Below, in pieces: positions 3,001 through 6,000 of a stretch of 9,274 nt of DNA; within the stretch, counting starts at the first letter, position 1, and each line of letters opens with the position of its first letter. Position numbers: made by a program. The stretch spans positions 1-9,274 of the IMG/VR virus record IMGVR_UViG_2703719355_000015. One strand, written 5' to 3'. Source of the DNA: a virus (Duplodnaviria > Heunggongvirae > Uroviricota > Caudoviricetes).

Positions 3001-6000
3001 AGGAGGAGCAGCGAAGGCATACGAAAGCCCTGTTATACGAAATGCCTTGTTACGTCTGGCAAATACGCCAAAAGGTAGCACAGCATATGACAGAGCGATC
3101 AGTACGGTCACACAATCGCTCACCAGAGTCGCACAGGCATCACAAAAAGAAGCTCAATAACTGGCAGCCACGGATGGCTAATTTTTATTCTTTGATCTCG
3201 TCCACAGGGAAAGAAGAGCAATGGCAAGACAGGAAACAGAGAATAGATAACCTACCTCATATGGTGCGCCAAAAAAATTAGCTATTGATACGGGCAAAAA
3301 AGCCGAAGCGATCAGAATTGAAAGGCAAAAAATAAGCCCAGTAACATAGTTTATTAAACTCTTAAATGAGAAACGTTTTGCTTGATTTACGGTCTCAGCG
3401 AGTGATCGCTTAACGATGGATAAAAGCAAATAGATGGCGACAGTAGCTAATGCCCCTTTCCACCAGTCTGGATATAATTTTGCGACAATCAGCCCAAGGA
3501 AAACCATGATGACAGACTGAGTATTCACACCAACCTCCTTAGTTTTGCGCAGGATACCAGATGATACTTTATTGGTGGAGTGGTGTGTGAAAACGTGTCA
3601 ACGACAAACCATCCACAACTTGGACGAATGATTTAGCAAAAAGTGCTATTTTTGGTGTTTGGTGTCATAGAAACGTGAATAGCTTACTTTTCAACATTGC
3701 TTATGTTGTGAGTTCTAACGGTAACAGGGAGTGACTTAAGAAAGTTATACGCAGTAAAGCCAGCGGCAGTTTCCCCTCCCTGACTTGATATATGGATATT
3801 TAATTCAGTTGCGCCTTGAGATAATGCGGTGAGACAGTGGTTCTGAAGTTGCCCAACAGTGGCAGTGTTAACGGGGCATAAGAAATGAATTGTGTGCAGC
3901 ATTATTTATCATCCTTGCCATAAATCTTTTTAAGTGTCTCAAACACAACAGCCTTGAACTGCTCTGCCTGCTGATCAGCCAAGCGTTCAGCTTCGTCGCG
4001 ATAGCCAGTCACAGGCGATGGTTTTGATAGAGCATCTTGGACGATTTGTAACAACTCGGAGTTCATTGATCTCCCATTCGCCTCCGCCCTGAATTTTAAT
4101 TTCTCCCTTACTTCCAAAGGCATACGGAAGTTAAAGTGCGGATCGTCTCTAGCCATGCCATCACTCCAAGTTAGTATCTCTAACTTTCGTCTTTATTGTT
4201 GCTATACATGCATTTCAACTTCTCAACATCATGTTCAAGATCTATCAATCGTGATGCTATAGTTGCAAGGTCTAGTGCTTGAATGTGTTTATTTTTTTCG
4301 GTCCATGCTTCAAGTGCCGCGACCATCTCAGCATTTAATGAACGAGACTTAGCCTCAGCCAGTTCAATAAGACGTTCCTTTATCTCTACAGGAAGCCTCA
4401 GATTCACTTGAGGGTTTTTGTACTTACGATCAGACATCGGCACATCCTGAATAACTTTTTACCACAGGATATGTAGGTATCTATTGACTATCAATGCGTA
4501 CCTAAATACTATGTATGCGTACCACATACAGCGGAGGATGCAATGAAGGTAAAAACACTGCGTATGCCAGAGAAGTTAGAAAAAATCCTTGAAGAGAAAG
4601 CAAAGGAAGAGTGTCGATCGTTTAGCGCAGAAGTAATTAAACGGGTGCTGGACAGCTTGAAGAGAGAGGGGGTGATGGTATGAGTAAAGAATGTTGTTTC
4701 TGCGGCATTAGCGAATCAGACGCTGATCAAACATACATTTACTCTAAAGAAACAGGTCGGATGCTGTGTAGTGACTGCGTGTTGGACATCATAAGATACA
4801 AGCATCTTGGATGTTCTGCCAGCATTAGCAATATAGGTGAAGTATACGAAGGGAAAGATATAACTGATAGAGCAGAAAGTTGAAGCCCCAACTGCGGGAA
4901 CAGTCAGGGCTTCGGTATCGTAAAACCACGCATAGGAATTAACGACATGACGAGTGTAGCAATTGCAGAACATACAATCAACGTTCCATTCCACGGAACA
5001 AATCTCTTTTTGGTCAGCATTAACAATGAACCTTACGTTCCTATGAAACCCGTTGTAGAAGGTATGGGTATGGTTTGGGCTGCTCAATTTGTTAAATTAA
5101 AACAGAGATTTGTCAAAGGTATTTCGGAAATCGAAATACCTTCTGCTGGCGGTAAACAGTTAATGATATGCCTTGCCTTTCGTAAGTTTGCGGCTTGGCT
5201 TTCAAGCATTCAGCCAAACAAAGTCCGCCCTGAAATCCGCGACAAGGTAATCCAGTATCAGGAAGAGTGTGACGATGTGCTCTACGAGTACTGGACTAAA
5301 GGTCATGTAGTTAACCCACGCAAAGCTAAAAAGGCGTTGCCGGGTAAAATTACCACTGAACAGCAGGAAGCCATTAAACAACTCGTCATGAGTCGCGGTC
5401 AGTCTCTGCCAAAAGAAAAACAGGCTAAGGCGATGATCACCATGTGGTCGTCACTGAAATCCCATTTTGGATGTTCGTACAAAGAAATCAGTGAGGAGCA
5501 GTTTACCGAAGCACTATCACTTGCAGCTCGAGTTCCACTTGAAGGTGAGTTCATTGGCAAGTCGGAACATAATGAGATGAGTTGTTTTGATTGGAGGATG
5601 AATGTTCATAACCTGAACTCGGCGTGCATTCATCTTGATGCCATGTACAGAATATGGAGAGACGAAATGGAACCCGCTTTGCGATTGCTTGGCTCTCCGG
5701 TTGCGACCAGATTTTGCGGAAGAATTGCAGATTGCTATTCCGTAACTGCAAGCGTTAAGAAAAGTCTGGAGAATGCCGCAGGGCTGAAAGGCTTACAACC
5801 ATTTTAACTACCTGCACGAAAAGTGCAGGTCAATCATCAACGCAACGACCCAGCTTCGGCTGGGTTTTTTTATGCCCAAAATTCACCGTAGCCACGCTGC
5901 GGCGATTCCTTGCATCTGGAGCAAATTAAATGACAGACATTACAGCTAATGTGATTGTATCGATGCCTTCGCAACTCTTCACTATGGCGCGTTCTTTTAA

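Follow-up and report, generated by a model that had tools for sequence, protein, structure and literature searches.

A conserved intergenic core is a likely control region of an alternative immI antirepressor module in P22-like and other temperate phages

The immI region of phage P22 is a textbook case both of operator recognition by a repressor beta-sheet and of promoter competition. It carries two different palindromic operators, with Oarc placed in the promoter spacer and Omnt at the start. In the OR region of phage lambda, three operators lie between the back-to-back promoters PR and PRM; some of these sites repress one promoter and another serves autoregulation. MetJ with its met-boxes, CopG and the plasmid protein omega use short symmetric or repeated boxes, each taken by the beta-ribbon of one dimer, with several dimers on each operator. 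The CopG operator consists of inversely repeated 4-bp boxes, and the P22 promoters Pant and Pmnt have been described as "divergent and overlapping" (PMC2724298). Here we analyzed a 9,274-nucleotide stretch of viral DNA (IMG/VR record IMGVR_UViG_2703719355_000015, positions 1 to 9,274; hereafter, the window). The window, 9.3 kb long, comes from a P22-like (Lederbergvirus) prophage and represents the end of its late operon; it covers the immI ("ant moron") region and is nearly identical to coliphage CUS-3. We consider it likely, from comparison of related loci, that a 65-bp core at positions 4466-4530 controls an alternative immI (antirepressor) module, present in P22-like and other temperate phages, and that it works through the circuit set out below.

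The genes in the window are arranged in the order injection-protein genes, two small leftward open reading frames (ORFs), mnt, RHH2, a gap, arc-like, orf67, ant, tailspike and acyltransferase. As in P22, immI lies between the injection genes and the tailspike gene, with a ribbon-helix-helix (RHH) gene at the Mnt position on the left, an arc-like gene followed by ant on the right, and a sar RNA. The gene at the Mnt position, RHH2 (4180-4437, minus strand), encodes an 85-aa Arc/Mnt-family repressor (Pfam Arc, E = 2.9e-9; best match in the Protein Data Bank [PDB], Mnt, 1mnt). Its start is likely the ATG at 4437, as annotated in CUS-3 and by the NCBI Prokaryotic Genome Annotation Pipeline (PGAP), and not the GTG at 4443. 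On the other side, arc-like (4543-4683, plus strand) encodes a 46-aa RHH protein (Pfam Arc, E = 3e-8; PDB matches to Arc) and is preceded by a Shine-Dalgarno sequence, GGAGG, at 4533-4537. Both proteins passed the 20.4-bit cut-off of Pfam Arc (PF03869), with 37.0 bits for RHH2 and 33.8 bits for arc-like, and the PDB entries that they matched, Mnt (1mnt) and Arc (1baz and 1arq), place them in the Arc/Mnt RHH family, whose Arc domain has a beta-strand at its N terminus followed by two helices. Divergent RHH genes at the Mnt and Arc positions thus flank a short control region, a gap of 105 bp, with an antirepressor gene downstream of arc-like and sar lying over the start of ant. The control region is probably a conserved, uncharacterised variant of the P22 immI circuit and not a new kind of system.

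The case that this region is more than a chance arrangement comes from conservation and not from repeat or promoter statistics. We found about 40 distinct relatives, in E. coli, Salmonella, Photorhabdus, Xenorhabdus, Erwinia, Lonsdalea and Shewanella, and compared promoter hexamers in 22 sequence classes, site cores in 40 unique sequences and overall identity in 17 diverged loci. Across the diverged loci, the 65-bp core was 80-98% identical, compared with 56-75% for RHH2 coding DNA and 52-65% for arc-like coding DNA, and the sequence immediately outside the core was variable on both sides. Two -35 hexamers, TTGACT and TTGATA, and both copies of a direct repeat were kept where the flanking genes had fallen to 44-80% amino-acid identity. 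The sequence at 4466-4530 is, on this comparative evidence, real and functionally constrained. One could argue that the core is conserved as a recombination linker, a "boundary sequence" at mosaic junctions maintained by frequent exchange and not by regulatory selection; indeed, the CUS-3 record labels the control stretch "bsq2; boundary sequence", and mosaic junctions fall at the core edges in loci such as L070 and L012. However, a 65-bp island with 95% identity between flanks of about 55% (locus L074) could not be moved alone by homologous recombination, so recombination alone cannot explain it, and the substitutions within the core avoid promoter and core-site positions. We regard the linker explanation as highly improbable.

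The same region is present in phages that have already been sequenced. CUS-3 (CP000711) is 96.5% identical to the window over 3963-4950, and its core differs at one base, 4479. Its record lists two "mnt" genes and has the "boundary sequence" in the place of arc-like and orf67, neither of which is annotated there; the published inference (Villafane et al.) that CUS-3 lacks an arc gene is corrected by arc-like at 4543-4683. Salmonella phage SEN22 (KT630648) has the same core with two substitutions, next to diverged genes, and neither the CUS-3 nor the SEN22 record carries a promoter or operator annotation. Both SEN22 and E. coli O104:H4 C227-11 have RHH2, arc-like and ant without a P22-type mnt gene, which indicates that the module is self-contained. 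Of 5426 complete E. coli genomes, 146 have the control region, among them that of the O104:H4 outbreak strain; RHH2 relatives are found across Enterobacterales and in Shewanella algae. In some relatives, the same control region stands beside lambda-like tail genes or Bro-N/ORF6N antirepressors. A scan of species-representative genomes with an 18-mer gave 17 matches, eight of which, all in Enterobacterales, carry the module; the other nine lack it and were taken as chance matches. Our literature search found no study of this control region.

To locate promoters, we used a consensus scan of positions 3800-5100 with a score out of 12. The scan returned exactly two promoter-like sites, both within the gap between the divergent Arc/Mnt-family genes and both scoring 9/12. 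The rightward promoter, P_R, has a -35 element TTGACT (4484-4489, plus strand) and a -10 element TACTAT (4507-4512) separated by a 17-bp spacer; the leftward promoter, P_L, has TTGATA (4494-4489, minus strand) and TATCCT (4471-4466), also with a 17-bp spacer. These sequences read as the initial annotation had described them within 4466-4523, and both promoters are conserved across the 22 classes: TTGACT is found in 21, TTGATA in 20, and TACTAT or TAATAT at the P_R -10 in 17. The P_L -10 takes seven forms among the relatives (TATCCT, TAACAT, TATTCT, TACCAT, TAATCT, TAATAT and TACTAT), yet each of them reads TAxxxT and the spacing stays at 17 bp, as would be expected for a genuine -10 element. 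With hexamers and spacers within the 16-18 bp range kept in relatives, both sites have the character of sigma-70 promoters; the same scan called both in the Lonsdalea prophage and called P_R in Photorhabdus relatives too. From the gene arrangement, P_R would drive arc-like, orf67 and ant, and P_L would drive RHH2 and then a P22-type mnt gene stacked downstream of it (3902-4156, minus strand; Pfam Arc and Repressor_Mnt). The earlier description of the leftward promoter as mnt-like needs correcting, in that the transcript would carry two genes, of which RHH2 is native to the module. Separately, three prophage loci (L027, L045 and one identical locus) have TGCTAT as the P_R -10, an A-to-G change at the second -10 position (equivalent to 4508 in the window), which could be a natural promoter-down variant silencing ant.

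The geometry of the pair differs from what had first been described. With starts taken 7 nt after each -10, P_R would begin at about 4519 and P_L at about 4459, that is, about 60 bp apart, and the -10 elements are 36-46 bp apart. "Face-to-face" promoters are pairs with overlapping transcripts (PMC5175336), and this label was wrong for a pair that stands back-to-back. The two -35 hexamers were said to overlap inside a perfect palindrome at 4483-4495. The 5-bp arms of this palindrome, ATTGA and TCAAT, do match, but its central CTA is not symmetric, and the hexamers share only base 4489 and otherwise abut. In P22, by contrast, TTGACA (from 1719) and TATATT (to 1747) face TTGAGA (from 1752) and TATCAT (to 1724) on the opposite strand, so that the -10 of one promoter falls on its partner's -35 and the predicted starts are about 37 bp apart. 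The promoters in the window do not overlap fully in this way.

This geometry bears on a literal version of the first description, according to which there are two operators, the copies of ATGCGTACC, for the Arc-like and Mnt-like proteins, and the switch works mainly through exclusion of polymerase at the shared -35 palindrome. Abutting -35 hexamers are compatible with it, as is the expectation that polymerases bound at starts 60 bp apart would have footprints overlapping on the upstream side of the -35 elements; the logic of the P22 switch, moreover, includes competition of Pant with Pmnt. However, the -35 elements share a single base and their centers are about 5 bp, or half a turn, apart, which makes exclusion less than obvious; the arrangement is unlike that of P22; and a third site exists in phase with the other two. 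We therefore find this account distinctly unlikely as a whole, while mutual exclusion of polymerase at the abutting -35 hexamers is possible in itself.

We confirmed the 21-bp direct repeat around the rightward -10, both by reading the sequence and by a repeat search: ATGCGTACC occurs at 4494-4502 and 4515-4523, 21 bp apart and bracketing the P_R -10, and these are its only copies in the window. An exact direct repeat of at least 9 nt arose in 1.4% of shuffles of the 99-nt gap, which served as the null for the repeat; whole-window statistics allowing one mismatch were uninformative. The proposal that the repeats are operators gained from their retention across bacterial orders and from their positions in the P_R spacer and at +1, but the sites number three and not two. 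They follow a 21-bp period, equal to two helical turns and thus on one face of the DNA, and each has a dyad-symmetric 6-bp core of the form SRTAYS. Site 1 (GTAGGTATCTA, 4473-4483; core GGTATC, 4476-4481) is the first member of the array and has diverged from the repeat. Site 2 (ATGCGTACCTA, 4494-4504; core CGTACC, 4497-4502) and site 3 (ATGCGTACC, 4515-4523; core CGTACC, 4518-4523) contain the two repeat copies noticed initially. Relative to the predicted starts, site 1 (center 4478.5) lies at -40.5 of P_R and -19.5 of P_L, site 2 (4499.5) at -19.5 of P_R and -40.5 of P_L, and site 3 (4520.5) at +2.5 of P_R and -61.5 of P_L.

Among the 40 unique sequences, SRTAYS was fitted by 38 at site 1 (six different hexamers), 38 at site 2 (two hexamers) and 39 at site 3 (four hexamers). 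Within the cores, the outer positions varied only between C and G and the inner positions only by transitions, which fits a symmetric dimer reading each core. Site 2 is ATGCGTACC or ATACGTACC in 19 out of 22 classes. At the position of site 1, a full repeat copy, (A/G)TGCGTACCTA, is found 21 bp upstream of site 2 in Lonsdalea and at two Photorhabdus loci, and a near-copy, CTGCGTACCTA, in Erwinia. Three copies at a 21-bp period are accordingly present in Photorhabdus and, as a pattern search showed, in Lonsdalea; the Lonsdalea array reads ATGCGTACCTA-TTGACTATCA-ATGCGTACCTA-AATACTATGT-ATGCATAGC. In other lineages, site 1 resembles an inverted copy (locus L065). That the copy appears direct or inverted depending on the lineage is explained by the SRTAYS core being its own reverse complement at the consensus level.

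Other matches were seen near the array. A fourth SRTAYS match, GATATG at 4468-4473, lies 8 bp to the left of site 1, overlaps the P_L -10 and is present in 17 of the 40 unique sequences, and Lonsdalea has an inverted ATGCGTAGC just downstream of the predicted leftward start. A TACCACA repeat (4460 and 4520, 60 bp apart) was considered as a possible fourth site; it is out of the 21-bp phase, restricted to E. coli-type sequences and lost in the SEN22 type.

The same stretch contains symmetry beyond that pointed out at first. A 39-bp imperfect palindrome (4470-4508, center 4489, 14 of 18 arm positions) holds both -35 elements and sites 1 and 2. A 21-nt unit occurs in tandem (4477-4497 and 4498-4518, 71% identity), with ACTAT common to both units. 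A 19-bp imperfect palindrome, TGTATGcG-TAC-CaCATACA (4512-4530), surrounds site 3 and covers the predicted P_R start; its arms are made perfect by A4524G in several relatives. To these we add a 13-bp palindrome, TAAATA-C-TATGTA (4503-4515), which covers the P_R -10 and is flanked by sites 2 and 3, has a mean complementarity of 0.78 in the 40 sequences and is a possible second operator.

These features allow a different account, which accepts the promoters but denies the repeats an operator role. On this view, a 21-bp unit would have been duplicated in tandem long ago to give the 42 bp at 4477-4518, which would owe their conservation to the promoter elements that they contain. The repressors would then bind at other places, such as the 13-bp palindrome that covers the -10 or the 19-bp one at the start. 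It draws on the 71% identity of the two units and on ACTAT, which belongs to the -35 block in one unit and to the -10 in the other. In addition, the scores of the dyads at 4509 and 4521 are close to those of the site cores, and the sole compensatory double change (4503/4515, TA to CG, in 3 of the 40 sequences) falls in the 13-bp palindrome centered on 4509. Against this, the best-conserved letters outside the promoters are the repeat cores, whose variants stay within the dyad-symmetric consensus and in exact 21-bp phase, and a full third copy is restored in some lineages at a position outside the promoter hexamers. Furthermore, an unrelated module at locus L012 has a different repeat, CACGGTGTAG, present twice at the same 21-bp spacing and similarly placed relative to its promoter (copy 1 overlaps the -10 and copy 2 is at the predicted start); the architecture thus recurs with a different specificity. 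On balance, we judge an old duplication without operator function to be unlikely.

The 19-bp palindrome could also act in RNA, either by folding in the leader of the P_R transcript or by terminating leftward transcription, and the scan did flag 4512-4530 as a terminator-like stem on the minus strand. However, with its predicted start at about 4519, within the stem, the P_R transcript would begin too late to include the 5' arm. A leftward terminator would have nothing to act on, since no leftward transcription unit lies upstream. Changes at 4515 disrupt the 4515/4527 pair and are not compensated, and no Rfam family matched 4512-4530. We rejected this RNA or terminator interpretation, whose probability we put close to nil, on the grounds of the start within the stem, the uncompensated pair and the missing Rfam match.

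Several observations bear on which protein might read the three phased sites. The RHH2 strand YK[NH]PQVNLRL is identical in all intact relatives read, except for YR in place of YK in two, and it is unchanged even where the C-terminal domain has been swapped. The arc-like strand, by contrast, comes in three types (KVKTLRMP, PSSVRFP and PVSVRMP) while the sites stay unchanged. At the decayed locus L072, arc-like, the P_R -10 and site 3 have been lost, and RHH2, P_L and sites 1 and 2 have been kept. The RHH2 strand KNPQVNLRLP also matches the Arc F10V variant (PDB 1baz), keeping the Gln, Asn and Arg positions of Arc, residues that contact bases in the Arc-operator structure. Taking these observations together, we assigned the SRTAYS sites to RHH2, an assignment for which we see roughly even chances. 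Candidate operators for the arc-like protein are the same SRTAYS cores or the 13-bp palindrome over the -10. As a possible covariation of the DNA with the arc-like type, every type B and type C locus has TAATAT as its -10, but so do two type A classes.

Several points weigh against the proposed control region and its circuit. The two promoter hits in 1.3 kb are not above chance, the expectation from shuffles being 2.6, and promoter elements could account for much of the total conservation. Overlapping dyads centered at 4489, 4509, 4517.5 and 4521 fit about equally well, and a lone compensatory change is all that was seen among them. The link between RHH2 and the sites is a correlation. A search for relatives with an altered RHH2 strand found none. 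A profile scan of viral contigs yielded close relatives and nothing more distant, and of 125 RHH2 relatives found by protein search, the 23 distant ones that were read all keep YKNPQVNLRLP or YKHPQVNLRLP. RHH2 lacks a match to the Mnt tetramerisation domain, which leaves cooperation between sites 21 bp apart unexplained. Finally, the literature that we searched contained no transcription start, footprint or reporter data for the module.

Sequence, gene content, conservation and geometry are what the analysis shows; promoter use, start positions, the pairing of proteins with sites and the regulatory logic are inferred from them. In the circuit that we consider likely, dimers of RHH2 would bind the SRTAYS cores. 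In a lysogen, RHH2 made from P_L would occupy site 2 in the P_R spacer and site 3 at the P_R start, keeping arc-like and ant off and leaving the core of P_L uncovered, as with Mnt at P22 Pant. At higher repressor levels, site 1 in the P_L spacer would allow autoregulation that limits RHH2 synthesis. In a newly infected cell, the first promoter to fire would be P_R, with a delayed shut-off brought about by the arc-like protein and with sar RNA adding antisense control of ant. Two bolder ideas strike us as doubtful. In one, the phased SRTAYS sites form a bistable RHH switch of the lambda OR kind, each site lying at -19.5 of one promoter and at -40.5 or -61.5 of the other; a single bound dimer could then shut P_R and, from a position typical of activators, stimulate P_L. 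In the other, which is separate, the P22-type mnt is a working trans-immunity gene, and stacks of two or three Mnt-like genes would be a record of serial module replacement.

The proposed circuit shares with P22 a strong rightward promoter of the TTGAC type and repressor-type sites in its spacer and at its start. The operators themselves are different, as had been noted initially. Oarc (ATGATAGAAGCACTCTACTAT), which is present in P22 between the -35 and -10 of Pant (locus L003, 1724-1744), had no match within three mismatches anywhere in the window, and Omnt (GGTCCACGGTGGACC) had none within three mismatches in the window or in the whole CUS-3 genome; the half-site GTGGACC was likewise absent from the window. 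We can fairly infer from these comparisons that the operator specificity would be distinct from that of P22. Where P22 has two unlike operators, the window has three like sites with a 21-bp period, and it has in addition orf67 and, in this phage, a second mnt gene without its operator. The window is homologous to P22 across mnt and the mnt leader, as far as ...CCAAGTTAGT (about 4175), which corresponds to the start region of P22 Pmnt. This end point indicates that the P22 promoter, operators and arc have been replaced by another module and that the old mnt was retained behind it. On the right, the sar RNA marks the limit of the swapped module.

On paper, the region also resembles lambda OR, since three similar dyad-symmetric sites lie between divergent back-to-back promoters (SRTAYS being found in 38-39 of the 40 sequences). 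It differs in the protein fold (RHH here, helix-turn-helix in lambda), in its 6-bp cores at 21-bp spacing as opposed to 17-bp operators, and in controlling an antirepressor as opposed to a lytic operon. The short dyad-symmetric or repeated boxes recall the arrays of MetJ, CopG and omega, but those boxes are contiguous or about one turn apart, whereas here they are two turns apart with promoter hexamers between them.

The stacked P22-type mnt is intact, and its reading strand is identical to that of P22 Mnt; it has no promoter of its own. It contains the Mnt tetramerisation domain PF11423 (E = 4.2e-12). RHH2 had no match to this domain and so does not qualify as Mnt proper; its relatives carry several unrelated C-terminal domains. 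Because P22-type Pant/Omnt regions are found in 173 out of 5426 E. coli genomes, the stacked mnt could act in trans on other phages and may silence Pant of co-circulating P22-type phages. Among 80 loci, about 10 stack RHH2 with P22-type mnt. At L012 (1141-2040), L013, L014, L075 and L076, one promoter is followed by a stack of Mnt-like genes; the L012 stack runs from a third type (strand PLGIRIP) through RHH2 to P22-type mnt. The stacks suggest serial replacement of the control module with retention of older repressor genes. At L012, positions 1150-1240 (minus strand) hold a different immI control region, with TTGACT-16-TAGTAT and an upstream palindrome, CTACACAGTGTAG, and its Mnt-like and Arc-like small repressors have the strand PLGIRIP in common.

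Among the remaining features, orf67 (4680-4883, plus strand) lies between arc-like and ant and encodes a small Cys-rich protein (CCFC...CSDC) of 67 aa that is zinc-ribbon-like. It matched phrog_7150, of unknown function (E = 3.4e-50), and had no Pfam match. This ORF lacks annotation in CUS-3 and in PGAP for NU14, and many O157:H7 genomes carry the stretch at about 96% identity, again with no annotation. The sar antisense RNA (4878-4945, minus strand; Rfam RF00262; 84.6 bits, with the gathering score at 43) covers the ribosome-binding region of ant. The antirepressor gene ant (4947-5807, plus strand; Pfam P22_AR_N, E = 5.7e-40) is the regulated cargo of the module. To the left, a 72-aa ORF (3684-3902, minus strand), weakly similar to ClpP/head-maturation protease and perhaps a fragment, and a 116-aa ORF with no family match (3178-3528, minus strand) fill the slot of P22 sieA and ORF59a. 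Within RHH2, a hairpin followed by a T-run (CCTCAGATTCACTTGAGG-GTTTTTG; 4396-4413, plus strand) is formed by the PQVNLR codons; it could terminate rightward readthrough from the late operon, or it may be a mere by-product of the coding sequence.

Annotations of the small Arc/Mnt-family genes vary. PGAP now names all three of them "Arc family DNA-binding protein", the entry for arc-like being WP_000865489.1. PHROG 795, which holds Mnt and RHH2, is labelled "partition protein ATPase", and the same name is given to mnt or the gene at the Mnt position in the RefSeq phages NC_011976, NC_028696 and NC_047875; this looks like a propagated mis-annotation.

The module described here would perform the same task as P22 immI with unrelated operators and another promoter geometry, and it thus offers a comparison for finding which features of the P22 circuit are essential. 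It is common, traveling with different antirepressors and tail types in prophages from Salmonella to Shewanella, and it is already present, yet unannotated, in CUS-3 and many genomes. The mnt genes that lack their operator are flagged as possible cross-immunity cargo. Since antirepressors can induce resident prophages, control of this module bears on prophage induction.

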